IMG/VR virus record: IMGVR_UViG_3300032284_001716
Coordinates: 1 to 64,000 of that record
Length of the DNA stretch: 64,000 bases
Source of the DNA: a virus
Strand: one strand, 5' to 3'
A program made the position numbers and the translations under genes. Shown here one piece after another: positions 1,673-24,908 of the stretch. The notes under the pieces are model-generated. The model searched no databases. It was not told the origin of the DNA and saw only the letters and a list, made by a program, of their open reading frames with translations. Positions within the stretch are counted from its first letter, which is position 1. Each line of letters opens with the position of its first letter.

Positions 1673-1825
1673 ATGGGGACCGATTATCTTTGTGAACAGT
1701 GCGATGCAGAGTATCAGGTCATCCATCGAGAGAAAGATCCGGTATCCTTCTGCCCCTTTTGTGGGTGGCAGAAGGATCTAGATGAAGAAACTGAGGAAGA
1801 CGAAGACCTCTGGGACGATGAGTAG
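1673..1825 (+). CDS. Small zinc-ribbon protein, 50 aa (not in ORF track)
   Basis: MGTDYLCEQCDAEY…CPFCGW…acidic tail; CxxC…CPxCG; fills the gap between neighbours exactly. Confidence 0.75.
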   Translation: MGTDYLCEQCDAEYQVIHREKDPVSFCPFCGWQKDLDEETEEDEDLWDDE

Positions 1826-2235
1826 TGTCCTATGAAAATCCGTGGACCTATGAAGGTAACTTAGTAGATGAAGAATTAGTGTACAATCATGTTGGTTTTG
1901 TGTATAATATAACCAACATGACGACAGGTAGACGCTACATTGGTAAGAAGCTCTTCACTAAGTCTAAGACTAGGCAGGTGAAGGGCAAGAAGAAACGTAC
2001 TAGAGTAGCGTCTGACTGGATGGAATACTATGGTTCTAATAAAGAGTTGCAGGCTGATGTTGAGCAACTAGGTATCCACAACTTCAAGAGAGAGATACTT
2101 AGACTATGCAAAACCAAAGGCGAGTGCAACTATTGGGAAGCTCGATACCAGTTCGACTATCGAGTTCTCGAGTCTAACGACTATTATAACTCGTGGATCA
2201 TGGTAAAAGTCCATAAAGCGCATCTGCCCACGTAG
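1825..2235 (+). CDS. GIY-YIG endonuclease (T4 endonuclease II/Seg-like)
   Basis: GFVYNITN…RRYIGKK, YYGS, FKREIL, YYNSWI. Confidence 0.85.
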   Translation: MSYENPWTYEGNLVDEELVYNHVGFVYNITNMTTGRRYIGKKLFTKSKTRQVKGKKKRTRVASDWMEYYGSNKELQADVEQLGIHNFKREILRLCKTKGECNYWEARYQFDYRVLESNDYYNSWIMVKVHKAHLPT

Positions 2236-2303
2236 GCCAACAGGTTAGAGTCAACGGACTTAAAATCCGTAAAGTGTCGGTTCGAATCCGACCGTGGGCA
2301 CCA
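2226..2303 (+). tRNA. tRNA-Leu(UAA), short variable arm
   Basis: Acceptor GCCCACG/CGTGGGC + A-CCA; anticodon arm ACGGA-CTTAAAA-TCCGT; T arm GTCGG-TTCGAAT-CCGAC. Confidence 0.92.
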
Positions 2304-2319
2304 TTAACAGAGAAAGACA

Positions 2320-2793
2320 ATGAGAAAGTTTGATCTTGATGAAGTGGTTGAATTTATCCTCAGTTCTTCGCCTTCCACCTCCATCTATATTGGAGCAGAT
2401 AGTGAACGTTACCGCGGTAGGGATGACAAGTGGTATGCTGACTATACAGTTGCCATTGTTATTCACATGGATTCTTCTAGAGGTTGTCGTGTCTTCGGAA
2501 AGATAGACACAGAACGTGACTTTGATAAGCGCCATGATCGACCAGCGTATCGTCTTATGAACGAGGTCTATCGTGCATCTCAGATGTACCTAGACTTGTT
2601 TGAAGCTATCGGCGATCGCCACTGTGAAGTTCATCTGGACATCAATCCTGATGAGATGCATGGTTCATCATGTGTCATTCAGCAGGCTACCGGCTATATT
2701 CGTGGCATGTGTGGTTTTACTCCTAAGGTAAAGCCAGAAGCTTTTGCTGCTTCTTATGCAGCCGATAGACTGAAGGAAATTCTGCACGCGTAG
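2320..2793 (+). CDS. RNase H-like YkuK (DUF458) family protein
   Basis: IYIGADSE, RLMNEV, EVHLDINPD, KVKPEAFAASYAADR. Confidence 0.85.
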   Translation: MRKFDLDEVVEFILSSSPSTSIYIGADSERYRGRDDKWYADYTVAIVIHMDSSRGCRVFGKIDTERDFDKRHDRPAYRLMNEVYRASQMYLDLFEAIGDRHCEVHLDINPDEMHGSSCVIQQATGYIRGMCGFTPKVKPEAFAASYAADRLKEILHA

Positions 2794-2859
2794 CTTAGCG
2801 TCTAAAGCCGGCCGCTCATAACGGTCTTATCGGGGGTTAGAGTCCCTCCGCGTGCACCA
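2784..2859 (+). tRNA. tRNA with CAU anticodon, most likely Ile2 (lysidine type)
   Basis: Acceptor GCACGCG/CGCGTGC + A-CCA; anticodon arm GGCCG-CTCATAA-CGGTC resembles proteobacterial Ile2; no initiator GGG/CCC stem or 1-72 mismatch. Confidence 0.88.
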
Positions 2860-2880
2860 ATTTTAACAAAGGAGTATATT

Positions 2881-2970
2881 ATGGCACATCCGCATAAAAA
2901 TCGTCCTCGCAAGGGTCGTCGTAAGATTGGCTCTAAGAAGCGGAAGCAGAGGAATAAGAGGAAGAGGTGA
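2881..2970 (+). CDS. 29-aa highly basic peptide MAHPHKNRPRKGRRKIGSKKRKQRNKRKR (not in ORF track)
   Basis: AAGGAG SD 6 nt upstream of ATG; stop overlaps GTG start of next gene (GTGA). Confidence 0.75.
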   Translation: MAHPHKNRPRKGRRKIGSKKRKQRNKRKR

Positions 2971-3326
2971 GACTCTTCCTCGCAGTCATGACCATGGTAT
3001 TCCCATTGTCAGCTACCGCAGCTGATATGAAAAGGGAATACCATGGCATTGCTTCTTGGTACCAGAGTGGGCATAAGACTGCAAGTGGTCAAAAATTCAA
3101 TGCTCATAAGTATTCTGTGGCACACAAGAATCTACCATTCGGTACTATGTTGCGTTTGACTAACATAAAGACTGGTGCCACGATCGACGCGGTCGTCAAC
3201 GATAGAGGGCCGTTTAAGAAGGATCGAGAGCTTGACGTATCAAAGGCTGGTGCAATATCTCTAGGGTTCTTCCATAGTGGTACGGCAAAACTTCTTATTG
3301 AGGTATTGTCTGACCTAAAGAAATAA
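2967..3326 (+). CDS. rlpA: RlpA-family lytic transglycosylase (DPBB domain) with signal peptide
   Basis: GIASWY…TASGQKF…AHKNLPFGT…VNDRGPF…R.LDVS. Confidence 0.92.
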   Translation: MRLFLAVMTMVFPLSATAADMKREYHGIASWYQSGHKTASGQKFNAHKYSVAHKNLPFGTMLRLTNIKTGATIDAVVNDRGPFKKDRELDVSKAGAISLGFFHSGTAKLLIEVLSDLKK

Positions 3327-3338
3327 TTGGAGAATGAT

Positions 3339-4250
3339 ATGTACAAGACACTTTTAACCGCAGGGGTAATGTTTGCCGCGGTCGCGTCAACACCCGCGGC
3401 CGCAAAGCCTTTTACACTGTCTGACCTTTTTTCTAGTCCACAACCAGAGGTTCAGCAACCAGTACAGCAACCGAAGAAGGTTGTTAAGAAGCGTACTAAA
3501 AAGCAAACAAAGCAGGTTAAGGCTCCTGTTAAAGTAGCACCTGAAAATAATGCATTCGTAAAGTGTGATTCATTATTTGGTATTGGTTGTGGCATGGTGG
3601 CCGCAGCACCTACTACTGCAGCTATTACGTATGGTGTTGGTATGTCTGCCCCCTCTACATCTTCAGAGGAGATGACGTCAGCACAGTATTGGGCAGAGGA
3701 AGCTAGACGTAATCAGAAGCAGCAACCTGCTGTTGCTCCTAGACAGTCGATTGCTACAAATCTAAAGACTCGTGAGGAACGTCGCCGCGAGCTAGTTATG
3801 AATTGTAGCTGGTTTACATGTACGCCGGGTTATGTAGAACCGGTGATGGAAGCCAAGAAGTGGGAAGGCAAGACTGCTAAGGGTAATAAGCGCGAGCTTC
3901 AAGCCCTATTCAAAGATGGTAAGGTTCCACCTATTGATCCAGCACGTATCCCATGGTGTGCTGCATTTGCGAATGCCATCCTATCAAGAGCTGGTTTCGA
4001 AACAACAGGCAGTCTACAAGCTAGAAGCTTCCTTCACTGGGGTACAAAGACAAAAGATCCCAAAGAAGGGGATATTGTTGTTCTAGCACGAGGCCACAAT
4101 GGTTGGTCAGGGCATGTTGGATTCTTCCAGGGCTTCGAAGATTTCGAAGGTGTTAAGTATGTTAAGGTACTTGCGGGTAATACGGACAAGGCAGTTCAGG
4201 TCGGCTATTTCCCAGTGAGTAAAGTTCTTGGATATAGAACAGCAGCCTAA
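3339..4250 (+). CDS. Exported TIGR02594/NlpC-P60-like peptidoglycan hydrolase
   Basis: Signal peptide; C-terminal PWCAAF…ARSFLHWG…GDIVV…GHVGF…VLAGN (Cys/His dyad). Confidence 0.85.
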   Translation: MYKTLLTAGVMFAAVASTPAAAKPFTLSDLFSSPQPEVQQPVQQPKKVVKKRTKKQTKQVKAPVKVAPENNAFVKCDSLFGIGCGMVAAAPTTAAITYGVGMSAPSTSSEEMTSAQYWAEEARRNQKQQPAVAPRQSIATNLKTREERRRELVMNCSWFTCTPGYVEPVMEAKKWEGKTAKGNKRELQALFKDGKVPPIDPARIPWCAAFANAILSRAGFETTGSLQARSFLHWGTKTKDPKEGDIVVLARGHNGWSGHVGFFQGFEDFEGVKYVKVLAGNTDKAVQVGYFPVSKVLGYRTAA

Positions 4251-4279
4251 CGATCGATATATAAGTTATAGAAAAATAA

Positions 4280-4311
4280 ACGGGCAGTATGTTATTCTCG
4301 ATACTGCCCGT
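4280..4311 (+). promoter_or_regulatory. 11-bp stem hairpin in intergenic leader
   Basis: ACGGGCAGTAT-N10-ATACTGCCCGT perfect inverted repeat, no U tract. Confidence 0.5.
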
Positions 4312-4372
4312 GATCAAATCTTACTGTTAACAATTGAGAAAAAAGTTTGCTTGTTTATCATGGAGATTTTGA

Positions 4373-4534
4373 ATGGCAGAGGTCGACCTAGTAAAGGTTG
4401 AGCTCGAGTGGTATAAACAAATCCTCGAGCATATCAATAAAGTTCTATCTAATCCGCAAATGACCAATGATGAAAAGGTCAGTTCAGCCGCGTGGCTTGT
4501 CAAACAGTTGAAGAAGAGTGATCGTGATGACTGA
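4373..4534 (+). CDS. Hypothetical protein, 53 aa (not in ORF track)
   Basis: GGAG SD; MAEVDLVKVELEWYKQILEH…; stop overlaps clpP start. Confidence 0.65.
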   Translation: MAEVDLVKVELEWYKQILEHINKVLSNPQMTNDEKVSSAAWLVKQLKKSDRDD

Positions 4535-5087
4535 TAAGAGTGATAAGAAGACTGAGATTCCGAGCATCGATGAACATCACTACTATATGTTTACTAAGGA
4601 GTTTGATGCTGACTCATCGTCTGATGCTATAGAGTTTATCCTAGAACGAAATCTTATGAAGATCAAGCCGAAGATGATGAAGATGATCATTAACTCGCCG
4701 GGTGGTGAGATTGCGGCTGCCTTCGCGCTCATCGATACAATGAAAGGGTCACGCGTGCCCATCTATACGTACGGGCTTGGTGAGATCGCCTCCTGCGGTC
4801 TTATGACGTTTATCGCCGGTGAAAAGGGTCATCGCTACATCACCCGTAATACTGCCATCCTCTCACATCAGTATAGCTGGGGATCCTTTGGTAAGGATCA
4901 TGAGCTCATGGCTCGTGTGAAGGAATTTAACAACACACATGCACGAATCCTCGAGCACTATAAGAAGTGCACAGGACTTTCCGAGAAAGATGTTAAGAAG
5001 TTCCTTCTTCCTCCTGAGGACGTGTGGCTGACGGCTAAAGAAGCTGTTAAGTATGGTATCGCTGACGAAGTGGTGGATTTTTACTGA
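4527..5087 (+). CDS. clpP: ClpP-family protease proteolytic subunit
   Basis: INSPGG, IASCG (Ser), SHQ (His), EDVWLTAKEAVKYGIAD (Asp). Confidence 0.95.
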   Translation: MTDKSDKKTEIPSIDEHHYYMFTKEFDADSSSDAIEFILERNLMKIKPKMMKMIINSPGGEIAAAFALIDTMKGSRVPIYTYGLGEIASCGLMTFIAGEKGHRYITRNTAILSHQYSWGSFGKDHELMARVKEFNNTHARILEHYKKCTGLSEKDVKKFLLPPEDVWLTAKEAVKYGIADEVVDFY

Positions 5088-5242
5088 TGTGGAGACTCTG
5101 GGCAAAAGCGCTTGGGGAAAAGGCGTCTGACGAAGACAAAGAGGCTGATCGTGTTGCTATCATTAGGACACTGATAATTATCAGCTACATCACAACAAAT
5201 TTGTTTATCGTAGCAGGTGTGATTAGGCATTGGAATGGGTAA
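5087..5242 (+). CDS. Small membrane protein, 51 aa, of the MWRLWAKALG type seen in T4-like phages
   Basis: TGATG overlap with clpP; MWRLWAKALGEKA…IVAGVIRHW; one TM helix. Confidence 0.75.
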   Translation: MWRLWAKALGEKASDEDKEADRVAIIRTLIIISYITTNLFIVAGVIRHWNG

Positions 5243-5468
5243 TAAATATAATTGGATTTTTTGGATGGAATGGTTATCAACCGCAGTGCTTATCTACGGT
5301 TGTGTAATGAATGCATTTAACATATATCCACTCAATATCTACCTATGTCTACTTGGTAATTTCGGTTGGGCCGTTGTTGCCTGGCAATGGCGTAAGTGGT
5401 CATTATTAGTCATCCAGGGTGTAGTGTCCGTTATCTACATATTTGGTGTTGCCGCGGTCCAAATGTAA
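5235..5468 (+). CDS. Small 3-TM membrane protein
   Basis: Three hydrophobic segments; N(I)YPLN motif. Confidence 0.7.
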   Translation: MGNKYNWIFWMEWLSTAVLIYGCVMNAFNIYPLNIYLCLLGNFGWAVVAWQWRKWSLLVIQGVVSVIYIFGVAAVQM

Positions 5469-6188
5469 ATGTTAAAAACAAAAGTTGAACACTTCTTTGG
5501 TTCTCAAGAGAGGCATGATCTGCAGATGGTGAAGTTGAGTCTTGATATTGATAATCTGGTAGAGCGTGAAGCTCTTGAGAATGGTTGGTTGATTGCTAAT
5601 GAACAGTGGTATCAGTGCCGCAGCGTTAGAATCAACATCGAAGAGTATACAGATAAATCAAAAGAACCAAAGATGCCTAAAACTCTGACATTCGAGTTCT
5701 TCTGGCGCTCACAGATTGATGATGATAACCGTGATCATATCAAAACGGTATTCAAACAGTTCTGTGAGTATAAAGGGTTCGACGATCAAGCATTTGACGT
5801 CTTCAAGGACTGGGATCGATCTGCATGGATTATCGTCTATGATGAGGGTGTTCCTGTTGCATTTACAAAGTTCATCAGATACGACAGTGATGTAGAGAGC
5901 CAGTTCACTGCATGGAACTATCATAAGCCAAAACTCTCTATCGGCAAAGCTCTCATCTGGTATGAGACTATCATTGCTACAGAGTTTATGGGTTCTGACA
6001 AGTACCTCTATATTGGTCAGGGATATGAAGAAGGTAGTGCGTACAAGGCTGACATTCCTGGCTTTGAGTGGTGGACCGGATCAGAATGGTCTAAAGATCG
6101 CGAAGAGTATAAAGCATTGTGTGCGCGTGATAGCTCTATAAATAGTCTACAAGAGTTGTCCAAGGTATACAATAATGGCGATCGGTAA
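5469..6188 (+). CDS. Putative aminoacyl-tRNA-protein transferase (ATE/Bpt-like GNAT)
   Basis: N-terminal GW…WYQCRSVRI; C-terminal KLSIGK…YE…KYLYIGQGY…AYKADIPGFEWW resembles the ATE_C SLG…Y.YLGY…YK pattern. Confidence 0.6.
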   Translation: MLKTKVEHFFGSQERHDLQMVKLSLDIDNLVEREALENGWLIANEQWYQCRSVRINIEEYTDKSKEPKMPKTLTFEFFWRSQIDDDNRDHIKTVFKQFCEYKGFDDQAFDVFKDWDRSAWIIVYDEGVPVAFTKFIRYDSDVESQFTAWNYHKPKLSIGKALIWYETIIATEFMGSDKYLYIGQGYEEGSAYKADIPGFEWWTGSEWSKDREEYKALCARDSSINSLQELSKVYNNGDR

Positions 6189-7416
6189 ACACCCATCTGG
6201 TAAGAGAACACGTCAGCGCCCTGTCCTCAGCGCTAAAGAGTTGGCTAAGGTCACTAATGACCCTGCCTTCCGTGCCCGTATGGCAAAAATCAATACTATT
6301 CCAATTATCAGAACATTTGATATTCCATATGTTGCTGGTTACTCGCAAGATGGTAAGCGTGTCTACTTTGACCGTCATTTTGATACAAAGTTTGATGGCA
6401 AGGACATCACAAACTTCATTCGTATCCACGAGGTTGTTGAGAAGTTCCTCCTAGATACACAGCATATGAAGTACCAACAGGCGCATCACTACGCTCTTCA
6501 CTTTGAGCGTGCAGCTGTTGAGAAGGCTGGTATTAACTGGAATAAGTATTGTGATCACATCGATCCATACATCAAGAAGATTGGCCATGAATCTATCACA
6601 AAAGTTCCTAAGGACTTAGATGATGAGCCATACGCCGATGAGAAAGATAAGAAGATCCTAAAGTCCCTTATGCAAAAGGAGGGTCGTAAGTCCATCAAGG
6701 AAGAGATTCTTAATGAGACGAAGATCAGCCTTGAGTATCATGAGATTTTGAATCCTGCACTGTGGGATGATGTACGACTAAAGCCGGATGTTAAGAAGAA
6801 GTTGCTGAACTTCGGTTACGCGTGGGCAGACTTTGCAAAGATTCCACGTGACATGATTCAAGATATTACCATGATCGGTGGTAATGCAAACTACAACTAC
6901 ACATCAAAGTCTGATATTGATGTGCATCTAATTATCGACAGGGATGCCTTCGCATCTGGTGCAAGTAGAGAGATCATCGATGAGTATCTACAGGATAAGA
7001 AGCTGCTCTGGACCCTCACGCATAAAATTAGTGTACTCGGCTACGCGATTGAGCCCTACGCCCAACACAGCGAAGACAAACCTGCCGCCAACCAGGGGGT
7101 GTATTCACTCCTCCACAGTAGATGGTTACAATTCCCTAATCGCGGAAGCTATAACTGGAAAAACGATCCAGCGCTTAAGCGAAAGGTGATGTTCTACAAG
7201 AAGTCCATTGACGAGATTATCAAGAACAAGATGGGTGGAGACGCCGTCAAGGACATGAAGCGAAAGATAAGAGAGATGCGAAATGCATCCATCGCCAGAG
7301 GTGGTGAGTTCAGCTTCGAAAATCTTGTGTTCAAAGAACTACGCAACCGCGGTTATCTAGACAGGATGAATCGCTACGAACAGTCCTTAAAGGATCAGGC
7401 GTTGAGCTTGAAATAA
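6175..7416 (+). CDS. Two-domain protein: HExxE domain + Pol-beta-superfamily nucleotidyltransferase
   Basis: C-half IGGNANYNYTSKSDIDVH (hG[GS]x8-10DhDh) and GEFSFENLVFKELR; N-half YVAGYS…HEVVE…AH. Confidence 0.75.
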   Translation: MAIGKHPSGKRTRQRPVLSAKELAKVTNDPAFRARMAKINTIPIIRTFDIPYVAGYSQDGKRVYFDRHFDTKFDGKDITNFIRIHEVVEKFLLDTQHMKYQQAHHYALHFERAAVEKAGINWNKYCDHIDPYIKKIGHESITKVPKDLDDEPYADEKDKKILKSLMQKEGRKSIKEEILNETKISLEYHEILNPALWDDVRLKPDVKKKLLNFGYAWADFAKIPRDMIQDITMIGGNANYNYTSKSDIDVHLIIDRDAFASGASREIIDEYLQDKKLLWTLTHKISVLGYAIEPYAQHSEDKPAANQGVYSLLHSRWLQFPNRGSYNWKNDPALKRKVMFYKKSIDEIIKNKMGGDAVKDMKRKIREMRNASIARGGEFSFENLVFKELRNRGYLDRMNRYEQSLKDQALSLK

Positions 7417-7419
7417 CAG

Positions 7420-7448
7420 TGTACAAACATAGAGATAGAAGATATAAT
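7420..7448 (+). promoter_or_regulatory. Early (sigma70-type) promoter
   Basis: TGTACA-N17-TATAAT, same consensus as seven other sites. Confidence 0.7.
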
Positions 7449-7533
7449 AAGGATAATGTAAAATTAGTCTTCGAAGACGGAAGGACCGTCTGGAAACTCT
7501 ACCGCTGTGGCAAGCTAATATACATAGGAGTAC

Positions 7534-7671
7534 ATGATGACAAAGTGGGACACGATGAGCGAACTAGAGAAAATGGTAGCTCAGGACATGATCCAAGCAG
7601 GGTATGATTATTTAGATCCTGCGGATATTCAAGAATTTTGGCGGGAGATTGTAGCCACATGGACAGAGTAG
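7534..7671 (+). CDS. Hypothetical protein, 45 aa (not in ORF track)
   Basis: AGGAG SD; MMTKWDTMSELEKMVAQDMIQAGYD…DIQEFW. Confidence 0.65.
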   Translation: MMTKWDTMSELEKMVAQDMIQAGYDYLDPADIQEFWREIVATWTE

Positions 7672-7919
7672 TAATATATAGTAGAGAAAATTGCGCCTAC
7701 TGCGCGTATGCTAAGAACCTTCTAGAGACTAAGAATATCCCATACATGGAGCTTAAGCTCGATGTGGATTTCTCTCGAGAGACTTTGCTAGAGAATTATC
7801 CAACAGCTAAGACTTTCCCTGTGATTACAGTCGATGGTTTCTACATTGGTGGTTACTCACAGCTAGCAGAGCGTATTAATACACAAGCAAGTGAAAATAC
7901 ACAACTTCTAACTGAATAG
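7659..7919 (+). CDS. Glutaredoxin
   Basis: CAYC active site, TFPVI, IGGY. Confidence 0.93.
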   Translation: MDRVVIYSRENCAYCAYAKNLLETKNIPYMELKLDVDFSRETLLENYPTAKTFPVITVDGFYIGGYSQLAERINTQASENTQLLTE

Positions 7920-7926
7920 GTGATAT

Positions 7927-8205
7927 ATGAATGTTAAGTATGATCGTGACACAGTCCTTAAGGATCTTCACGAAAATGTGGTTGAAGTTCATTTTACTAA
8001 GGTCAATGGAGAGACACGCGTTCTACGCTGTACTCTCGACCCTAAATACCTTCCGCCTAACTATGATGCCAAGCATCTCGAAGAGCAGCACAAGCGCAAG
8101 GAAAATCTTACGGTTGTCGCCGCATGGGACCTCAACAACCATGGTTGGCGTTCATTCCGTATTGACTCAATCCAGTATCTTCAGGTAATCGACGCAGGGT
8201 ATTGA
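7927..8205 (+). CDS. WYL_2/Sm-like SH3 barrel protein (DUF2693-like)
   Basis: FTKVNGETRVLRCTL…WDL…GWRSFR. Confidence 0.8.
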   Translation: MNVKYDRDTVLKDLHENVVEVHFTKVNGETRVLRCTLDPKYLPPNYDAKHLEEQHKRKENLTVVAAWDLNNHGWRSFRIDSIQYLQVIDAGY

Positions 8206-8206
8206 T

Positions 8207-8491
8207 ATGACTAAATTAGTTATGGTTGAAACTCTCTCACAGTTTCGACATAGATATGTGGTAGAACTGCCAGACAATGCTGAAAATAATTGGGCAGTTG
8301 AGGACGTCATTATCACGGGTGGCGTCGAAGAGTTTAGTCAGACTCACTTAGGTGAGCTTGACTTCTCACACCGTGAAATCACAAAGGAAGAGTATCTGCG
8401 CCTGTTCGATGAGGATGTATCCTACTGTAGGAATTGGTCTGAAGAGCAGAAGCTTAAATTTATCTATAAGTCGGAGGCACTTTCAAAATGA
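8207..8491 (+). CDS. Hypothetical protein
   Basis: Tightly packed ORF in operon. Confidence 0.7.
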   Translation: MTKLVMVETLSQFRHRYVVELPDNAENNWAVEDVIITGGVEEFSQTHLGELDFSHREITKEEYLRLFDEDVSYCRNWSEEQKLKFIYKSEALSK

Positions 8492-9060
8492 ACGTATATT
8501 TCCTTCTTGATCGTAGTGGCTCTATGAGCAGCCTGTGGGGCGAGGCTATCGGCTCCATCAACGCTTATGTAAATAAGCTTGAATCTGATACAAAGGTGGT
8601 TCTTGCTGCCTTCGATAATCAGTCGTATGATATTCTTCGTGACTCTAAAGTCAAGGATTGGAATATTGTAGAGCAGACTGAGTTGGCACCTCGTGGTATG
8701 ACACCACTGTATGACTCATGTGGTAAGCTCATGAATCGTGCACTTGAGGATAATGCTGAAAAGACAGTTCTTGTCGTCATGACTGACGGCGAGGAAAATT
8801 GCTCCAAGGAATATTCTAACAGAGCTATCAAATCAAAGATTAAAACATTTGAAGAGAAGGGCTGGGAGGTTATCTTCCTCGGCGCTAACTTTGATGTTAG
8901 TAAGCAGGCAAGCGATCTTAACGTGGCTTTATGGAAGACTGCTATGTATGAGCCTGGTAATTTTGCTGCATCCATGGATACTCTTGCAACTTCTACTCGT
9001 GCGTATGCATCTGGTATTGCAATGAATCTTACTAAAGACCAATTCAAAGGAACTAACTAA
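8488..9060 (+). CDS. von Willebrand factor A domain protein
   Basis: MIDAS motif DRSGSM, TPLYD, MTDGEEN. Confidence 0.9.
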   Translation: MNVYFLLDRSGSMSSLWGEAIGSINAYVNKLESDTKVVLAAFDNQSYDILRDSKVKDWNIVEQTELAPRGMTPLYDSCGKLMNRALEDNAEKTVLVVMTDGEENCSKEYSNRAIKSKIKTFEEKGWEVIFLGANFDVSKQASDLNVALWKTAMYEPGNFAASMDTLATSTRAYASGIAMNLTKDQFKGTN

Positions 9061-9428
9061 TGTCACACTATTGGGGTTATCATCTTATTCTCGACTGTGC
9101 TGATCTCGACAATGACGCGATCACCAGTTATGACAATGTCTATAACTTTGCTAAGCGCCTTGTAAGGGACATCGATATGGTTGCCTATGGCGAACCACAA
9201 ATCGTAAACTTTGGATCTGGCAACAAAGCTGGATTTACACTCGTTCAACTTATTGAGACTTCGAATATCTGTGCGCACTTTGTGCCTGATGATGGCAATG
9301 GTGGCAACGCCATGTATCTTGACGTCTTCTCTTGCAAGTCATATGATGATGAGGTCGTAATCGATCTTGTTCGTCAGTATTTCGGTGCAAAGTACATTCG
9401 CCCTAACTATCTAACTCGTCAAGCCTAA
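9060..9428 (+). CDS. speD: S-adenosylmethionine decarboxylase proenzyme
   Basis: GYHLILD…LIETSNICAHF…YLDVFSCK. Confidence 0.88.
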   Translation: MSHYWGYHLILDCADLDNDAITSYDNVYNFAKRLVRDIDMVAYGEPQIVNFGSGNKAGFTLVQLIETSNICAHFVPDDGNGGNAMYLDVFSCKSYDDEVVIDLVRQYFGAKYIRPNYLTRQA

Positions 9429-9437
9429 GGAGTTATT

Positions 9438-10046
9438 ATGACTGAAGATTATGATGATTGGTTTGTGCAGGATCATGCGAAACGTTCTAAGAAGCGTCTC
9501 GGTGAGGTGGTTCCTGCTGTTGAGTTTAAAGTTCGTGTTCTTGCTGGCACTGTTGATGGAAGCGATGTTTACCGTTGGGACACACTGACATCTTACGATC
9601 TGTTTGGTGGCAAGCGTGTTATCATCTTCTCTCTGCCTGGTGCATTTACTCCTACTTGTGATACATTCCAGCTTCCTGGTTTTGAGTTAATGTATCATAA
9701 CTTTAGGCTGTTGCATGGTATCGATGCAATCTATTGTATCTCAGTGAACGATGCATTTGTTATGAATGCATGGGCTAAGTCACAGGATATTAAGGATGTG
9801 ACGATGATTCCTGATGGCAACAACACATTCACCCAAAAGATGGGTATGCTTGTTGATAAAGAGAATATTGGCTTTGGTGCACGTAGCTGGCGTTATGCTG
9901 CAATCATCGACCAAGGTCGTATTGAAGCTTGGTTCGAAGAGCCTGGTTTTAGTAATAATGCTGAGGATGATCCGTATGGTGAAACAACTCCAGAAAAGGT
10001 CATGGAATATCTTAACGTTAAGTCTATTGAAAAGGAACGCGACTAA
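9438..10046 (+). CDS. Peroxiredoxin (Prx5/PGdx type)
   Basis: PGAFTPTC, SVNDAFVMNAW, GARSWRYA. Confidence 0.95.
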   Translation: MTEDYDDWFVQDHAKRSKKRLGEVVPAVEFKVRVLAGTVDGSDVYRWDTLTSYDLFGGKRVIIFSLPGAFTPTCDTFQLPGFELMYHNFRLLHGIDAIYCISVNDAFVMNAWAKSQDIKDVTMIPDGNNTFTQKMGMLVDKENIGFGARSWRYAAIIDQGRIEAWFEEPGFSNNAEDDPYGETTPEKVMEYLNVKSIEKERD

Positions 10047-18737: not shown

Positions 18738-19411
18738 ATGTGGCTGTTATCACAGGTGCAAAGTCGTGGATCGCTATAGAGACTCAAAAGAAGCTTGAGG
18801 CGAACGGTTGGACTGTTGTCATGTGTGATCGTACCATCATGGACGTACAGGATCCAATGTCTGTACGGAAGGCCTTGAGCAAGATTCTAGCTGACCATGG
18901 ACGGATCAATGCCATGATCAATGTGGCAGGCGGTATCCGTATTCGTGGTGGTAGCGAGCTGCGTGGGAACTTCACCACACAGGCACCATCAGAGTTCGCA
19001 GAGATCATCGACAAGAACTTCATGAGTGTGGTGAACACAAGCCGAGAGGTGATCCCCTACCTTATGAACACACGTGGATCGATCGTCAACGTTGTGTCTA
19101 CTGCGGCTCTGAAGGGGATCCCTCGAATGTCTGCATACTCGGCTGCTAAGGGGGCGGTTCTTGCCTTCAGCAGAGCCTTGGCACAGGAACTAGGCAGCTG
19201 GCAGGTCCGAGTGAACTGTGTATTACCCGGTGTTACAACCAGCCAGTGGAATCCTCATGGCCGGAATCCGATCAATACCGAGCTATCTCCCCTAGGCCGT
19301 ATAACCTCACCGGTGGACGTGGCAGGTGCCATTGCATATCTGGTGTCCGATGATGCCAGCCATACCACAGGCGCGTGTGTGGATGTGTCCGGTGGAGTTG
19401 CCCTGCACTAG
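18734..19411 (+). CDS. Short-chain dehydrogenase/reductase
   Basis: NVAG, YSAAK catalytic motif, VRVNCVLPG, VSGG. Confidence 0.88.
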   Translation: MNVAVITGAKSWIAIETQKKLEANGWTVVMCDRTIMDVQDPMSVRKALSKILADHGRINAMINVAGGIRIRGGSELRGNFTTQAPSEFAEIIDKNFMSVVNTSREVIPYLMNTRGSIVNVVSTAALKGIPRMSAYSAAKGAVLAFSRALAQELGSWQVRVNCVLPGVTTSQWNPHGRNPINTELSPLGRITSPVDVAGAIAYLVSDDASHTTGACVDVSGGVALH

Positions 19412-19423
19412 CTAGAATCCAAC

Positions 19424-19441
19424 TGTGACAAATATGTCACA
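19424..19441. promoter_or_regulatory. Palindromic operator, copy 1
   Basis: TGTGAC-AAATAT-GTCACA, 36 bp upstream of -35. Confidence 0.7.
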
Positions 19442-19476
19442 CGGCCCAGAGAAGTGTCTCTGGGCCGCATTTTTTT
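19442..19476 (+). terminator. Intrinsic terminator after SDR gene
   Basis: CGGCCCAGAGA-AGTG-TCTCTGGGCCG followed by CA-T7. Confidence 0.8.
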
Positions 19477-19477
19477 A

Positions 19478-19506
19478 TGTACTTGCCTATAGATATATCG
19501 TATGAT
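19478..19506 (+). promoter_or_regulatory. Early promoter
   Basis: TGTACT-N17-TATGAT. Confidence 0.7.
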
Positions 19507-19532
19507 CAGAGAGTCAACAACGGAGTGACAAA

Positions 19533-19682
19533 ATGACTATCCAAGACATCTTTTCGGATTTCAAAAACCTTGTAACGGATTCTGAAAAAGTTAAGTATCT
19601 GCAATCGTTACAATCCCTTAACCTTCCTTTCGAAATTAATTACGAAAATCTGATCAATTTTTATCAGAAACGTAACAAATAA
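19533..19682 (+). CDS. Small early protein, 49 aa (not in ORF track)
   Basis: GGAG SD; MTIQDIFSDFKNLVTDSEKVKYLQSL…. Confidence 0.7.
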   Translation: MTIQDIFSDFKNLVTDSEKVKYLQSLQSLNLPFEINYENLINFYQKRNK

Positions 19683-19697
19683 CGAAACAATTAGCAC

Positions 19698-19715
19698 TGT
19701 GACATAAAAGTCACA
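19698..19715. promoter_or_regulatory. Palindromic operator, copy 2
   Basis: TGTGAC-ATAAAA-GTCACA (palindrome extends 19691-19722), 36 bp upstream of -35. Confidence 0.7.
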
Positions 19716-19751
19716 GTGCTAAGTAATAGCTCGGGGGACCGCATTTTCTAG

Positions 19752-19780
19752 TGTACTTACCCCTCAGAACTTCGTATAAT
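19752..19780 (+). promoter_or_regulatory. Early promoter
   Basis: TGTACT-N17-TATAAT. Confidence 0.75.
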
Positions 19781-19813
19781 GATTAGGTTAGATGAGATCA
19801 GGAGCTAAGCAAT

Positions 19814-19972
19814 ATGATGTACATTCGCCAAATCGAGACTCTTCTGGGCTGTGACCGTGCCACTGCTGTGGCTGTGTTTGACCTCATGTACGACCTCGAC
19901 TGCTCTGAGTGCTCGGACCGTCAGTTCAATAAGGCTGCCCGTCAGGCATATGCCGAGCTTCTGGCACAGTGA
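19814..19972 (+). CDS. Small early protein, 52 aa (not in ORF track)
   Basis: AGGAG SD; MMYIRQIETLLGCDRATAVAVFDLM…. Confidence 0.7.
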   Translation: MMYIRQIETLLGCDRATAVAVFDLMYDLDCSECSDRQFNKAARQAYAELLAQ

Positions 19973-19985
19973 CATATATGTCACA
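19968..19985. promoter_or_regulatory. Palindromic operator, copy 3
   Basis: AGTGAC-ATATAT-GTCACA, 36 bp upstream of -35. Confidence 0.65.
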
Positions 19986-20021
19986 CCGCCTGGGAATGTT
20001 ATTGCCAAGCGAAAATAACTA

Positions 20022-20050
20022 TGTACGATGGCCTCGGAACTTCGTATAAT
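20022..20050 (+). promoter_or_regulatory. Early promoter
   Basis: TGTACG-N17-TATAAT. Confidence 0.72.
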
Positions 20051-20094
20051 GATCAAGTTGAATGGTTGAAACCAACTCGAATGGAGACTACATA

Positions 20095-20601
20095 ATGGCT
20101 AAGCGTGGACAAAAGACTGCAACGACTATCTCCGTCATGGAAGCTAACCGTGGCAAGTCGTATGACGAAATCGGTGCTCTGATTGCCGAAGCTCTCGGTG
20201 CTCAGAACGGTACCGGCCGCCTCTACTACCGCTACATGGTTGAGGCCGGTAAGGTCCAGGGTTTCCCTGCTCCTTGGATGGATGGAACTGCCACTAAGGC
20301 GCCTAAGGTTGCCAAGGCACCTCGTGCCAAGACTGCCAAGGTTGCTAAGGTCAAGAACACTGTGACTGCTACGGTCAAGTCTGTCGACGAGATCGAAGCT
20401 ATCAAGCAGAAGAACCTTGAGACGATGCTAGCTGTGAGCGCCAAGCTCTCTCGCGTCCGTGACTTCTCCAAGCCTGTCAAGGAAGAGGAAGTCAAGGACG
20501 GTGAGTACTCGCCGCACCTTGACCGCGAAGAGGAGCTCAACGTCCTCCGCGCTGAAGGTCTGATCGATCAGGTTCCTCAGTATTCCCACCTTGAAGGCTA
20601 A
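20095..20601 (+). CDS. Early protein with Lys/Ala/Pro-rich linker, possibly DNA-binding
   Basis: GGAG SD; TKAPKVAKAPRAKTAKVAKVK segment. Confidence 0.75.
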   Translation: MAKRGQKTATTISVMEANRGKSYDEIGALIAEALGAQNGTGRLYYRYMVEAGKVQGFPAPWMDGTATKAPKVAKAPRAKTAKVAKVKNTVTATVKSVDEIEAIKQKNLETMLAVSAKLSRVRDFSKPVKEEEVKDGEYSPHLDREEELNVLRAEGLIDQVPQYSHLEG

Positions 20602-20607
20602 TCGGTA

Positions 20608-20629
20608 GAGGGCAGCTTCGGCTGCCCTC
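20608..20629 (+). terminator. UUCG tetraloop hairpin (terminator or stabiliser)
   Basis: GAGGGCAGC-TTCG-GCTGCCCTC; no U tract. Confidence 0.55.
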
Positions 20630-20673
20630 CATCACGGACACATCTCGGTGTGCCTCTGATGGAGGGTATGACT

Positions 20674-20913
20674 ATGGAACCTGAAAATCTTACATTCGAG
20701 CACCTGACTCTCGACGAGGCTCGCGCTCAAGCTATTGTGATGCTTCGCTCTCTTGTCAAGGTGAAGGTATCGAAGATCAATAATCTGATCCGCGATATCG
20801 AGCGTGCCAAGAACTCTCGCGAGGTTCAACGTATCATGTGGAATGCCTATATGGCCGGCACCGGCTTCGGTGTGTCTGGTTCCGATTGGCAGAAGTTTCA
20901 TAAGGGAGTCTGA
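20674..20913 (+). CDS. Hypothetical early protein
   Basis: GGAGG SD; phage-like codon usage. Confidence 0.7.
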   Translation: MEPENLTFEHLTLDEARAQAIVMLRSLVKVKVSKINNLIRDIERAKNSREVQRIMWNAYMAGTGFGVSGSDWQKFHKGV

Positions 20914-20914
20914 C

Positions 20915-21178
20915 ATGGTTATCAAGCCTATTAGCAAAGCTGGCCAGTCGAAGACTGGTGTTCTCTACGACATCACGGTCACCGCTATAGCCGAAGTCCT
21001 TGGATTTCCGCCCAACATTGAGGACGATCCGGACAAGGTGGAGAACTCTTGGGGGTTCGAGATCGATGGCAAGCAGTTTGGCATTTGGGACTATAAGGGT
21101 TCTCACCACATGGGCCAGTTCTCGACCTATGGTGATAGCTCTGTCCTAGCTAAGCTCTTCCCCGCCCATTACGTGTGA
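20915..21178 (+). CDS. Hypothetical early protein
   Basis: GGGAG SD; DDPDKV…WGF…IWDYKG. Confidence 0.7.
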   Translation: MVIKPISKAGQSKTGVLYDITVTAIAEVLGFPPNIEDDPDKVENSWGFEIDGKQFGIWDYKGSHHMGQFSTYGDSSVLAKLFPAHYV

Positions 21179-21185
21179 AATGAGT

Positions 21186-21249
21186 GATGTACAACCACCG
21201 TACTTCGTGGTATAATTATCCTATCAAATGAGGAAAGGAACTTAGCATG
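21186..21249 (+). repeat. Promoter-leader-RBS module, copy A
   Basis: TGTACA-N17-TATAAT…GAAAGGAAC…ATG; 57/64 identical to 21523-21586. Confidence 0.85.
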
Positions 21250-21516
21250 TCGTTGTCTTTTACGAAGTTGCTCCAGTCGATCCATCAGCTCGACAATGGT
21301 GAGCTTAACACTGTCATCGAGCACATCAAGGCTCGCCGGGCGGAACTGGCCACTCGCAACCGCCTGACCTTGAAGGTCGGTGATACCGTGACCTTTACCG
21401 GCCGTGGCAAGTCCCATGTCGGCAAGATCGAGGCCATCAAGGTCAAGAACGCTGTTGTCCGTGAGGGTAACATCAGCTGGCGTGTTCCTCTGAATCTGCT
21501 GGCTTCTGCCGCATGA
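21247..21516 (+). CDS. Hypothetical early protein (SH3/KOW-like C-terminus)
   Basis: LKVGDTVTF…GKIEAIKVK…WRVP. Confidence 0.75.
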   Translation: MSLSFTKLLQSIHQLDNGELNTVIEHIKARRAELATRNRLTLKVGDTVTFTGRGKSHVGKIEAIKVKNAVVREGNISWRVPLNLLASAA

Positions 21517-21522
21517 TTTAGA

Positions 21523-21586
21523 GATGTACAATCTCGCTACTTCGTGGTATAATTATCCTATCAAATGGTGAAAGGAACATAGCATG
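21523..21586 (+). repeat. Promoter-leader-RBS module, copy B
   Basis: Near-identical to 21186-21249. Confidence 0.85.
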
Positions 21587-22510
21587 GCACATATGGTTGA
21601 GACGATGGCCTACGCCGGTGAAACACCTTGGCATGGTCTTGGGTACAAAGTTCCTGCGGATCTGACTCCTGCTCAGATGCTGGAAGCTGCAAAGCTTGAT
21701 TGGACGGTTTCGAAGGTTCCTGCTTACGCAGAGATCAACGGCATCCAGACACCAATCGGTCGTTCTGCTCTCGTGCGTTCGTCTGATAGCTCGATGCTCG
21801 ATGTTGTGTCTGACGACTGGAATCCTATCCAGAACCAAGAGGCCTTTGAGTTCTTCAATGAGTTCATCGCTGCTGGTGACATGGAGATGCATACGGCTGG
21901 TTCGCTCCGTGATGGCCAGATCGTGTGGGGTCTTGCTAAGGTGCGTGATTCCTTCGAGCTCTTCAAGGGCGATCAGGTTGACTCCTACCTTCTCTTCTCG
22001 AACTTCCACCGCTACGGCTTCAGCACTGACGTGCGCTTCACTCCTATCCGTGTCGTGTGCAACAACACACTGACTCTGTCGCTCAACTCCAAGGTTGAGA
22101 ACTTCGTGAAGATCAGCCATCGTTCGAAGTTCGATGCTGACACCACCAAGGAGATGCTCGGCATCGCGAAGGAGAAGCTTGCGCAATACAAGGACATGGC
22201 TTCATTCCTTGGCTCTAAGATGGCCAAGACTGAGAACATCGTCGAGTACTTCAACAGCATCTTCCCTGCGACCGGCAAGAAGGATGCAAGCCGCAACGCA
22301 GAGCGTGCGATGGAAGTGCTTCACACACAGCCCGGTGCAAACTTCGCCGAGGGTACATGGTGGCAGCCTTTCAATGCGGTCACCTACCTGACCGACCATG
22401 AGCTTGGTCGTACCGCTGATAGCCGCCTTGCTGCTGCATGGTATGGCTACAACAAGTCCCTCAAGACCAAGGCTCTTGAGGTTGCGGTTGAGATGGCGGA
22501 AGCAGCTTAA
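21584..22510 (+). CDS. DUF932 (LGT_TIGR03299) family protein
   Basis: MAHMVETMAYAGETPWHGLG…TPIRVVCNNTL…NAVT. Confidence 0.92.
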   Translation: MAHMVETMAYAGETPWHGLGYKVPADLTPAQMLEAAKLDWTVSKVPAYAEINGIQTPIGRSALVRSSDSSMLDVVSDDWNPIQNQEAFEFFNEFIAAGDMEMHTAGSLRDGQIVWGLAKVRDSFELFKGDQVDSYLLFSNFHRYGFSTDVRFTPIRVVCNNTLTLSLNSKVENFVKISHRSKFDADTTKEMLGIAKEKLAQYKDMASFLGSKMAKTENIVEYFNSIFPATGKKDASRNAERAMEVLHTQPGANFAEGTWWQPFNAVTYLTDHELGRTADSRLAAAWYGYNKSLKTKALEVAVEMAEAA

Positions 22511-22519
22511 GCTGCTTCC
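22498..22519 (+). terminator. Hairpin spanning DUF932 stop codon
   Basis: GGAAGCAGC-TTAA-GCTGCTTCC perfect palindrome. Confidence 0.5.
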
Positions 22520-22545
22520 CCTTATATGTAATCCCAAAATGGAGA

Positions 22546-23676
22546 ATGTTAATGGCAGCTCGTCGCCCCGCTAGCTTGTTGAAGGCTAAGTCTAAGGATA
22601 GGAAGCCTCGTGTTTCACGATCCGAAGCTTACCGGATCAATGTTAAGTATATGGGCGAGGAGCCTGTCTTTACGAAGCCATTGACGCCGAGTGAGTACGG
22701 TAATGCCTTGAACTGGTATAACTGTATGGCTGACAAGGATGAGGCGCGTGAGTACACGTACACGTACCTGAAAAACGAAGGCAGGCTTGAGGAGCTGAAG
22801 GCACTGAAGCGTGTGCCTGATACGTGGCTCAACCTCTCGTGCGCGTGGGTGTGCCGTATGCTCACACTTGGGTATGTGCTTCCTGGCAATCCCAAGGAGT
22901 ACATCGACATTCGTCTTCAGGAGCAGTTGCTCAAGGCGAAGAAGGAAGAGCCTGAAGTTGCCAAGCCTTCTATTCAGGATCGTACGCGTGAGAAGGCTCA
23001 TGACATCATCGGTGAGATTGAGGAGATGATCGACAAGGAGACGATCTTCAGCATGTACGATTGGCTGAAGGCTCGCAGTGTTCCTGCGATGTATGCTCCT
23101 ATGATCATCGCCCATTATGCTCCATGGTTGTGTGAGTTGATTGAGGCATATGAAGGCAAGGATCCTCAGCTCAAGGAGGCCTATAGCTATCTGACGAAGA
23201 AGCAGTTGGCAGACCGTATCAAGTTCTTCCATGCGCTTATCTCTGATGCTGAGAAGTATGCTGGTGTTGCGAAGAAGACTCGTGCTCCTCGTAAGCCACG
23301 TCCTGTATCAAAGGAGAAGCTACTGAAGAACCTCAAGTTCCAGAAGGAGGATGCAGACTTCAAGATTGCATCCGTCAATCCTGAGAAGATCCTTGGCGCA
23401 CAGGAACTGTGGTGCTTCAATACGAAGTACAAGGTGCTCACTGTGTTCCGTGCATTGGATCGTGGTGGACTTCAGGTCAAGCGCTCTAGCATCATCGGCT
23501 TCGATGAGAAGACGAGCATGAGCCGTGGGTGTGGTCGATCGGCTGACAAGATTGTACAATCAGTACTGACAGCCGGCAAGATCACTCTTCGCAAGGTGAT
23601 GGATGATCTGAAGACCGTAAGGGTACTTCAAGAACGCATGAATGAGAACACAATTCTATTAAAGGTGGTGATGTAA
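22546..23676 (+). CDS. Conserved hypothetical phage protein
   Basis: 376-aa ORF with GGAG SD; no family recognised. Confidence 0.75.
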   Translation: MLMAARRPASLLKAKSKDRKPRVSRSEAYRINVKYMGEEPVFTKPLTPSEYGNALNWYNCMADKDEAREYTYTYLKNEGRLEELKALKRVPDTWLNLSCAWVCRMLTLGYVLPGNPKEYIDIRLQEQLLKAKKEEPEVAKPSIQDRTREKAHDIIGEIEEMIDKETIFSMYDWLKARSVPAMYAPMIIAHYAPWLCELIEAYEGKDPQLKEAYSYLTKKQLADRIKFFHALISDAEKYAGVAKKTRAPRKPRPVSKEKLLKNLKFQKEDADFKIASVNPEKILGAQELWCFNTKYKVLTVFRALDRGGLQVKRSSIIGFDEKTSMSRGCGRSADKIVQSVLTAGKITLRKVMDDLKTVRVLQERMNENTILLKVVM

Positions 23677-23888
23677 TGGGCAAAAAGTATCGGATCCATG
23701 TCATGGAGTCTGAACGTGGTTGGGGTCAGGATCGTTGGACCGAAACGTTTGACACGTACAGTGAAGCGCTAGCTCGGATCAACTCTATTAATGCTCAGAA
23801 TACTGCGCGCAATGCACCCGATTGGTATCAGGTAGCTTATGGAAAGATCGACGTTATCGATGATGGAGTACCAGATGAAAATTCTTAA
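23676..23888 (+). CDS. Hypothetical protein
   Basis: TAATG coupling; ESERGWG…APDWY. Confidence 0.7.
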   Translation: MGKKYRIHVMESERGWGQDRWTETFDTYSEALARINSINAQNTARNAPDWYQVAYGKIDVIDDGVPDENS

Positions 23889-24309
23889 TGAGTGTTCGTT
23901 CCTCACAGACGCTGGTATCAGCAAGATCGAAGAGAAGTATAACGCAAAGTACGTCCTAGAGGCTTGCATCAAGGATGCTAATGGTCAATGGGCAAATATG
24001 CCGTGTGCTATCTTCTACAGTGAGACGGCGCACCCACAAGGCTCAAACTACTTTGCATTGTACTACAGCTCACGCCATAATACATACATGATCACTGATG
24101 GTCTGTCTGCTGTGGATGGTGTTGTGTTTAATGGTATCGAGTGCGAGGATGAGGTAGTCTACTCTCGCTATCGTCATGACTTCCGTAAGCACAAGAATGG
24201 TGCGTTCATCGATGGTGGGCGTGACTATGGTCGCTTCGGCGGTGACGCTTTCGAAGACTACAATCATGTAAAGTTCATCGTAAACAAGGATCGCTTAGAG
24301 ATAATCTGA
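23875..24309 (+). CDS. Hypothetical protein
   Basis: GGAG SD; YSRYRHDF…IDGGRDY. Confidence 0.7.
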   Translation: MKILNECSFLTDAGISKIEEKYNAKYVLEACIKDANGQWANMPCAIFYSETAHPQGSNYFALYYSSRHNTYMITDGLSAVDGVVFNGIECEDEVVYSRYRHDFRKHKNGAFIDGGRDYGRFGGDAFEDYNHVKFIVNKDRLEII

Positions 24310-24349
24310 TACCTCTAAAGCCTCAAAACAGCGCAGAAGGGATAATATA

Positions 24350-24610
24350 ATGTTCATTGAAATCGACGAAGAGCTTATCGACCGTATCATCAAGCAGCGC
24401 CTCGAGGAGGACTGGGTCCATGCTAACAAGGAAATCATGATCCTTGAGAGTGAGGATCGCCGCGGTGAACTCAAGCCTTATCAGCGTGAGGATCTTGAGA
24501 TGTACCGTAGGTTGATTCCTGCAATGCGCGTCATGGCAACATGGCACTTCACAAAGTTTGAGCAGGAAGAAATCTTTGGTGTACAAGACGATGACGATGT
24601 GATAGAATAA
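24350..24610 (+). CDS. Hypothetical protein
   Basis: AAGGGA SD, 86 aa. Confidence 0.65.
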   Translation: MFIEIDEELIDRIIKQRLEEDWVHANKEIMILESEDRRGELKPYQREDLEMYRRLIPAMRVMATWHFTKFEQEEIFGVQDDDDVIE

Positions 24611-24616
24611 ATACAG

Positions 24617-24908
24617 TTGCAAAGGTTGTTGATGCGTAAGGAATAGACGTTCTGGACCCGGGGGCGGTACCCGGCGCCTCCACCATAGATACATCGACAC
24701 GGACTACATGGGTAAACCTTATGAATGTAAGTAAGTCCCAACCGAAACACAGCGGTGTATCTTTGATGGGGGCGAAATAGGATCGACAGGATGCAGTAAA
24801 GGTACGAGTAGACCAATGCAAACGTTAGATGCAAACGATAATGCACCTCTAGTTATGGCACTTGCTGCCTAACATGCGTCCGGGGGAACGTGGAAACAGA
24901 ATCCCCCA
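24617..24908 (+). ncRNA. ssrA: Circularly permuted (two-piece) tmRNA, alphaproteobacterial type; tag (A)ANDNAPLVMALAA
   Basis: Acceptor piece ends CCGGG-GGCGGTA-CCCGG-CGCCTCC-A-CCA (24685); 82-nt intervening segment; coding piece starts GGGGGCG (24768) giving G3-U70; tag frame 24831-24872; 3' hairpin. Outer ends approximate. Confidence 0.93.

Follow-up and report, generated by a model that had tools for sequence, protein, structure and literature searches.

Tagging and proteolysis genes of an uncultured freshwater T4-like myophage are probably separate accessories rather than one system

Two-piece transfer-messenger RNAs (tmRNAs) have been published for pelagimyophages and Melnitz-like phages, where 17 of 47 related contigs carry one, and 402 tmRNA-bearing isolates were counted in an earlier release of the isolate-phage collection (PMC9004378). 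Tagging of host proteins by the two-piece tmRNAs of aquatic myophages has already been speculated (PMC9004378). Here, we analyzed a 64-kb stretch of phage DNA (the window), the first 64 kb of the 99.5-kb IMG/VR record IMGVR_UViG_3300032284_001716, whose completeness is estimated at ~58%. The window encodes a two-piece tmRNA, a ClpP-like peptidase, a transferase resembling ATE1 and Bpt (ATE-like), and two nuclease genes that run into tRNAs, which an earlier note on this DNA had taken for a single phage-encoded tagging-and-proteolysis system. That proposal is partly supported: its parts list holds, but the claim of a single system does not. These genes probably belong to an accessory-gene arm with several separately acquired, separately dispensable host-takeover genes, because they come and go independently among related phages. 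The features on which this turns are:

4518/4527–5087, plus strand: divergent ClpP-family (S14) serine peptidase with its triad retained, an accessory gene (Pfam CLP_protease, alignment)
5469–6188, plus strand: predicted ATE1/Bpt-like aminoacyl-tRNA-dependent transferase, 239 aa (transitive homology, profile, fold)
6175–7416, plus strand: partner gene, with an N-terminal metal-site domain (residues ~16–170, weakly zincin-like) and a C-terminal nucleotidyltransferase-like domain (alignment, fold model)
24544–24910, plus strand: two-piece (permuted) alpha-type tmRNA (ARAGORN, Rfam)
24918–24994, plus strand: tRNA-Arg(UCU), directly 3' of the tmRNA (ARAGORN, Rfam)

The co-occurrence of these components, a check that the earlier note had proposed, was assessed across related phages. 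Neighborhoods of the ATE-like gene were counted in the best 80 loci from 332 ATE-like IMG/VR contigs. A ClpP-like gene lies nearby in 14 of the 80 and is missing from the otherwise syntenic loci L008, L013 and L050. In a reverse search of 16 long ClpP-like records, two held a full ATE-like gene and one a weak match; among the five ClpP-like records that are at least 90% complete, none holds a full ATE-like gene and three have a tmRNA above cut-off. G018, the closest relative with a complete genome (167.8 kb, terminal repeats), has the same gene order, and its proteins in this region are 80–99% identical. The ClpP-like gene is retained (89% identical), and the ATE-like gene is a degenerate open reading frame (ORF) of 138–161 aa, depending on the start codon, that is 35% identical and has lost Y192 and G159. 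The altered stretch of this genome (L198, G018:158000–167756, 7060–8297) also lacks the N domain of the partner, whose nucleotidyltransferase-like domain is a separate 242-aa gene; the ATE-like gene and its partner are thus lost or changed together in G018. Elsewhere, the complete 338-kb jumbo phage G003 has an ATE-like gene and a tmRNA and no ClpP, G008 (89% complete) has an ATE-like gene and two ClpP genes and no tmRNA above cut-off, and two isolates, Phosso and BUCT-ZZ01, whose ClpP-like genes are the closest, have a two-piece tmRNA and no ATE-like match. Every pairwise combination of presence and absence is indeed seen among the relatives, complete genomes included. The ClpP-like gene, the ATE-like gene and the nuclease overlaps thus vary independently, and tmRNAs are simply common in such phages. 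It is this independent distribution, in the 80 loci, the five ClpP-like records, G018, G003 and G008, that speaks against one phage tagging-and-proteolysis system, and it is the outcome that the earlier note had named as refuting its proposal. A search with the gp6-like protein for T4-like relatives returned only seven loci, too few for a clean control set in which all three genes are missing.

The tmRNA itself is borne out as a two-piece molecule with an LAA-ending tag. It matches the Rfam model alpha_tmRNA (RF01849) over model positions 1–355 with 111.6 bits, against a gathering score of 50, and tmRNA_permuted (RF04321) with 106.6 bits. ARAGORN predicts a permuted tmRNA, acceptor piece first and coding piece second, with the tag ANDNAPLVMALAA, whose LAA ending is followed by a stop. 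In the acceptor stem, as read from the sequence, GGGGGCG pairs with CGCCUCC and is followed by ACCA, giving an Ala-type G3:U70 pair and a CCA end. The tag in G018 is identical, the tags in five other phage records end in LAA or IAA, and the pairing of tmRNA with tRNA-Arg recurs in G018, in G002 and in G001, a syntenic relative that is 85% complete. SmpB was not matched in the 99.5-kb record or in five related records, one of them complete, and host SmpB would be needed, as with other phage tmRNAs. Most likely, the phage tmRNA would top up host trans-translation through host SmpB, AlaRS and EF-Tu; it would release ribosomes that have stalled on damaged mRNAs in the infected cell and mark the resulting proteins for host proteases. 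An origin as a prophage integration remnant is unlikely given the full-length model match, the identical tag in G018 and the T4-like nature of the phages (no integrase search was made). The tmRNA is a further example of a known phage accessory and not a new one.

The ClpP-like protein matches Pfam CLP_protease with 106.5 bits, and its Ser (IASCG), His (SHQ) and Asp (PEDVW) align with the catalytic triad of solved ClpPs. Its best NCBIfam ClpP score, 92.8 bits against a cut-off of 249 (ClpP cut-offs are 228 or more), does not reach equivalog level, and alignments begin only at residue 24–52, leaving the N-terminal axial region for unfoldase coupling unaligned. Of the intact ClpP named in the earlier note, the CLP_protease domain and the Ser-His-Asp triad stand, but the protein is divergent. 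A role as prohead protease was considered and ruled out: the score against the ClpP-related head-maturation model Clp_rel_HeadMat is 62.8 bits, below its cut-off of 120, and in G001 a T4 gp21-type protease lies beside gp23, far from the ClpP-like gene. Relatives of the ClpP-like gene are present in 363 IMG/VR contigs. The genes from the ClpP-like to the ATE-like one abut or overlap, which is consistent with co-transcription and with the transferase lying in a clpP operon, as had been proposed. Neither ClpS nor AAA_2 (ClpX/A) was matched in the 99.5-kb record (~58% complete) or in G001; that SmpB, ClpX/A and ClpS are not visible in the window had been observed before, and extending the search to the whole record gave still no match. 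The ClpP-like protein would act as an extra non-structural protease, with an unfoldase, if needed, from the host, and it too is a further example of a known phage accessory rather than a new one. Sinorhizobium phage Phosso (PV764938.1, a 469-kb isolate; L095/L109) encodes a ClpP-like protein 50% identical to that of the window together with ClpA, ClpS and an alpha-type tmRNA, and offers a cultivable model in which to study phage Clp and tmRNA genes together.

The nuclease genes that had been proposed to feed the tagging system lie upstream of the ClpP-like gene, each followed by a tRNA:

1825–2235, plus strand: GIY-YIG (SegE-like) nuclease-domain gene (Pfam SegE_GIY-YIG, 9e-38)
2226–2303, plus strand: tRNA-Leu(UAA) (ARAGORN, Rfam)
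2320–2793, plus strand: RNaseH_like (PF04308) gene, a variable cassette (Pfam, 7.9e-17)
2784–2859, plus strand: tRNA with a CAU anticodon, Met by ARAGORN (ARAGORN, Rfam)

Reading the sequence, the TAG stop of the GIY-YIG ORF forms bases 8–10 of tRNA-Leu and that of the RNaseH-like ORF forms bases 8–10 of tRNA-Met, each with a 10-nt overlap. The tRNA-Met(CAU) at 2784–2859 was missing from the earlier list of tRNAs. The 10-nt overlap of the GIY-YIG gene with tRNA-Leu also occurs in seven related loci and in G018, an 18-nt overlap is found in one more locus, and L009 and L014 have none. The 10-nt overlap of the RNaseH-like gene with tRNA-Met, by comparison, is unique to the window: the stop in relatives lies between 22 nt upstream of the tRNA and 1 nt within it, and G018 has no RNaseH-like gene. 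Metagenome DNA contigs of run X3 join position 2303 directly to 2868/2896, skipping the RNaseH-like gene and tRNA-Met, which therefore behave like an insertion/deletion cassette in natural populations. The tRNA bases U8-A9-G10 are near-universal, and an ORF that enters a tRNA in the right frame stops at U8-A9-G10 or U8-G9-A10. Tight gene packing, which would let upstream ORFs run into the tRNAs, together with this stop is sufficient for the pattern and, as far as the sequence can tell, explains the overlaps without selection or regulation. By analogy with established RNase P and trans-translation biology, RNase P cleavage would leave a stop-less upstream fragment. Both overlaps reported in the earlier note are real, but they are distributed independently and that of the RNaseH-like gene is confined to the window. 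As for tRNA-Leu and tRNA-Arg, both are present, but they need not be read as donors for Bpt and ATE enzymes: since 28% of this phage's Arg codons are AGA and 25% of its Leu codons are TTA or TTG, the supply of heavily used codons is a sufficient explanation. The tRNAs of Melnitz are likewise for Arg and Leu (PMC9004378).

The 239-aa ATE-like protein has no direct sequence match in Pfam, NCBIfam, PHROGs or PDB, and ATE_C was matched nowhere in the 99.5-kb record. Several of its 94 homologues carry precomputed ATE_C matches or the JGI name arginyltransferase, ATE_C (PF04377) is matched by 22 of 31 aligned family members, and the family profile retrieves ATE1 chains only from PDB (E 3.4e-4). The AlphaFold2 (AF2) model has a pLDDT of 93.7, and its top Foldseek matches are the ATE1 of three species (E 8e-8, TMq 0.53), followed by MprF/aaPGS and FemX, all aminoacyl-tRNA-dependent GNAT transferases. 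The family call made from the window alone thus holds by way of the ATE_C matches of its relatives, the family profile and the fold. Residues were mapped by alignment of the family profile to PDB and the functional residues of klAte1, in which E277 is the Arg-pocket Glu and Y303-K304 are catalytic (PMC9351520). S144, W149, the invariant E166 and the invariant Y192-K193 correspond to klAte1 S255, W260, E277 and Y303-K304, and in place of the pocket residues S273 and Y289 the family has Leu/Ile and Leu, hydrophobic as in Bpt. ATE_N (PF04376) is matched by none of the 31 members, and the N-terminal half of the family alignment has no invariant Cys. R51 and R54 are invariant in the family, whose alignment with ATE1 spans the C domain only; in klAte1, the basic pocket for N-terminal Asp/Glu is formed by R80, Y25 and Y87. 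Relatives were seen here only in uncultured viral contigs (332 in IMG/VR), tblastn of 50,697 isolate phage records with two family members gave no match, and a literature search returned nothing relevant on a phage arginyl- or leucyl-transferase, which is no proof that none exists. Judged from sequence and model, the ATE/Bpt call appears right at the level of "works like", short of full ATE/Bpt membership. The protein is predicted to be a transferase that depends on aminoacyl-tRNA and has an acidic donor pocket of the Arg type, and it would work with the protein of the overlapping downstream gene. Protein N-termini are the leading idea for its acceptor, as homology suggests; a lipid or cell-wall acceptor may also be considered, since genes for membrane proteins and lysis flank the ATE-like gene and MprF and FemX are among the fold matches.

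The partner gene overlaps the 3' end of the ATE-like gene by 14 nt. Its N domain (~150 residues) lies directly downstream of the ATE-like gene in 48 near-clade loci, often as a stand-alone gene of 150–177 aa; fusion to the C-terminal domain is restricted to close relatives, and in G018 that domain is a gene of its own. The C-terminal domain is called nucleotidyltransferase-like because of a GG...DIDVH motif and because the Atlas gives PF01909 in 21–53% of nearest-cluster members, and a PDB sequence search with it gave no match. Within the N domain, H68, H85-E86-x-x-E89, H104 and E111 are invariant, and the model (pLDDT 82.6) shows a three-strand sheet with two helices that carry the invariant His and Glu residues. 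The best folds are weak matches to the minimal zincins selecase and abylysin and to IrrE/PprI (Foldseek E 0.17, VIA Z 4.5–4.7), and the domain profile found in PDB only the metal-site helices of DtxR/IdeR, weakly (E 0.05). Predictions of a complex between the ATE-like protein and the partner N domain scored 0.55, 0.00 and 0.00 in separate runs. On the upstream side, the interval to the ClpP-like gene is filled by:

5087–5468, plus strand: two short ORFs for predicted membrane proteins (51 aa and, with DUF6552, 77 aa), directly adjoining the ATE-like gene (sequence, Pfam)

DUF6552 lies upstream of the ATE-like gene in 15 of the 80 loci. Distant ATE-like clades have as neighbors DUF6614, a weak DUF1415-like protein, a T4 Rnl1-type RNA ligase and GGACT. 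The ligase, a tRNA-repair enzyme, is found 1–3 kb downstream of the distant-clade ATE-like gene in eight loci (L052, L054–L056, L058–L059 and L062–L063), and DUF6614 and the weak DUF1415-like gene recur near the same loci.

The source is an uncultured freshwater T4-like myophage, because T4-type genes are present and lake and other aquatic metagenomes of several studies hold DNA near-identical to the window. T4-type baseplate proteins (gp6-like and gp9/10-like) are encoded in the window, as are ribonucleotide reductase (RNR), PhoH and many auxiliary genes, and G001 and more distant ATE-bearing records encode T4 gp23 and the gp21 prohead protease. A likely host is an alphaproteobacterium, to judge by the alpha-type tmRNA and by a Porin_2 gene. 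This gene, of an alphaproteobacterial porin family (463 aa, 1.4e-45), directly follows tRNA-Arg at 25004–26395 and is 88% conserved in G018; the phage is T4-like and lytic. Further along, at 27607–29094, a Twitch-domain radical SAM protein (N_Twi_rSAM, 294 bits) lies beside an unannotated 374-aa gene. After the ATE-like pair, small auxiliary genes for glutaredoxin, a WYL_2 domain, VWA, S-adenosylmethionine decarboxylase and peroxiredoxin follow one another at 7638–10046, a series that is syntenic in many relatives.

How far the components might nevertheless cooperate can be weighed from these results. In the model of the earlier note, the tmRNA (writing C-degrons), the ATE-like protein (writing N-degrons) and the ClpP-like peptidase form one system, partly fed by non-stop nuclease mRNAs. 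All parts do lie within 23 kb on one strand, with the genes from ClpP-like through ATE-like contiguous, contigs of X4 and X5, from an independent study of a lake, show the same gene order, and the related phage tmRNA tags all end in LAA or IAA. However, the components vary independently, the RNaseH-like overlap is confined to the window and its gene is an indel, and neither the phage's own record nor the 85%-complete G001 has a match to SmpB, ClpX/A or ClpS. In the ATE-like family, moreover, no N-terminal cysteine is conserved, and a protein N-terminus is only one of the candidate acceptors. We consider this model highly improbable. A narrower link, in which the phage tmRNA and ClpP-like peptidase cooperate to raise tagging and degradation capacity and the ATE-like protein is unrelated, is unlikely but deserves more weight. 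The two genes occur together in the window, in G001, G018, G021 and G024 and in the isolates Phosso and BUCT-ZZ01, and the three tmRNAs in the five most complete ClpP-like records agree with it. Yet tmRNAs are common in this phage group anyway (17/47 Melnitz-like contigs; PMC9004378), G030 (93% complete) and G008 (89%) have a ClpP-like gene without a tmRNA, G003 has the reverse, and the counts are small and drawn from phages related to each other. In the window, the two genes are also 19 kb apart, and the ClpP-like protein is far under the ClpP equivalog cut-offs with its N-terminal region unaligned.

A different possibility is that the zincin-like partner cuts a target, the ATE-like protein attaches Arg, or some other residue, to the N-terminus thus exposed, and the product is destroyed by host ClpS-ClpAP. 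The overlap of the two genes, their conservation together in 48 loci and their joint change in G018 are consistent with such a pathway, as are the equivalents of klAte1 E277, Y303 and K304 kept in the ATE-like family and the partner's best, though weak, folds, the minimal zincin peptidases selecase and abylysin (Z 4.5–4.7). Some ATE-like jumbo phages also encode ClpS and ClpA-like genes. The partner motif is HExxE rather than HExxH, however, and the fold matches are in the noise range; distant ATE-like clades have other neighbors (DUF6614, the weak DUF1415-like protein, Rnl1 and GGACT), the next-best folds, MprF and FemX, belong to enzymes whose substrates are lipid and peptidoglycan precursors, and membrane-protein and lysis genes adjoin the ATE-like gene. 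On balance, this pathway is quite unlikely. Its extension, a virus-specific cut-then-add device that would place N-degrons on host proteins (e.g., defense proteins) for host or phage Clp, with the tmRNA and ClpP-like peptidase as optional boosters, is very doubtful, although the ClpS and ClpA-like genes of ATE-like jumbo phages would fit it.

Several observations do weigh against the preferred reading of separate accessories. The jumbo ATE-bearing records G003 and G004 encode ClpA-like unfoldases (838–879 bits to TIGR02639; L105 and L106), and ClpS is found in the jumbo ATE-bearing records G006 (L107, G006:169331–172567), ~740 nt upstream of the tmRNA, and G003 (L108, G003:327634–330867), beside an IbpA-like small heat-shock gene; ClpA and ClpS are widespread in isolated jumbo phages, where two ATE-like queries gave no match. 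The overlap of the GIY-YIG gene with tRNA-Leu is conserved across moderately divergent phages. Among the records, many of which are fragments, a tmRNA is present in 6 of the 17 with an ATE-like gene and in 7 of the 16 with a ClpP-like gene; both isolates with the closest ClpP-like genes have one too, and there may be a loose functional link between tmRNA and the Clp pathway in large phages. Finally, the window's own record is only ~58% complete. Even so, separate accessories probably remain the best account of the locus.

The useful result is mostly negative, in that a system of both degrons plus a protease dissolves on comparing relatives. The remaining interest lies in the ATE1/Bpt-like family of 332 IMG/VR contigs, tied here to an uncharacterised metal-site protein. 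If the ATE-like protein modifies proteins, it would be the first viral enzyme to attach an amino acid, taken from a charged tRNA, to the end of a protein; if the amino acid goes instead to a lipid, a precursor of the cell wall or a metabolite, phage infection would include a tRNA-dependent tailoring reaction of a new kind.

Compared with described systems, the tmRNA resembles those of pelagimyophages and the OM43 phage Melnitz, being a permuted alpha-type ssrA of an aquatic T4-like myophage with adjacent phage tRNA genes (Arg, Leu) and no phage SmpB (PMC9004378). Unlike in the Melnitz-type phages, an Rfam scan of the window gave no glutamine riboswitch, and the tag sequence is lineage-specific. 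The ClpP-like peptidase shares the S14 fold and the Ser-His-Asp triad with bacterial ClpP, but scores far under the NCBIfam ClpP cut-offs and has an unaligned N-terminal region; it is 36–50% identical to ClpP-like genes of large phages (Sinorhizobium phage Phosso, Synechococcus phage BUCT-ZZ01 and Ralstonia phage RsoM2USA). Phosso also encodes ClpA and ClpS, whereas the record of the window has no match to a phage unfoldase. The partner N domain is like the minimal zincins (selecase, abylysin/jannalysin) and IrrE/PprI in its sheet-plus-helices with invariant His and Glu, a weak fold match (Z 4.5–4.7, Foldseek E 0.17), and unlike zincins in its motif, HExxE in place of HExxH. The ATE-like protein shares the GNAT-type ATE_C core with ATE1 (klAte1 7WFX/7WG1, yeast 7TIF/8E3S and human 8TZV) and bacterial Bpt; ATE1 ranks top by profile and fold, and the equivalents of klAte1 S255, W260, E277, Y303 and K304 are conserved. 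It differs from both in having only 239 aa, no ATE_N match and no conserved N-terminal cysteines, in its occurrence, which here was limited to viral contigs, and in its pairing with a metal-site protein; at the positions of S273 and Y289 it is hydrophobic, unlike ATE1 and like Bpt. The ATE-like protein with its partner is what is new at this locus, a variant of a known enzyme type that is worth biochemical study.

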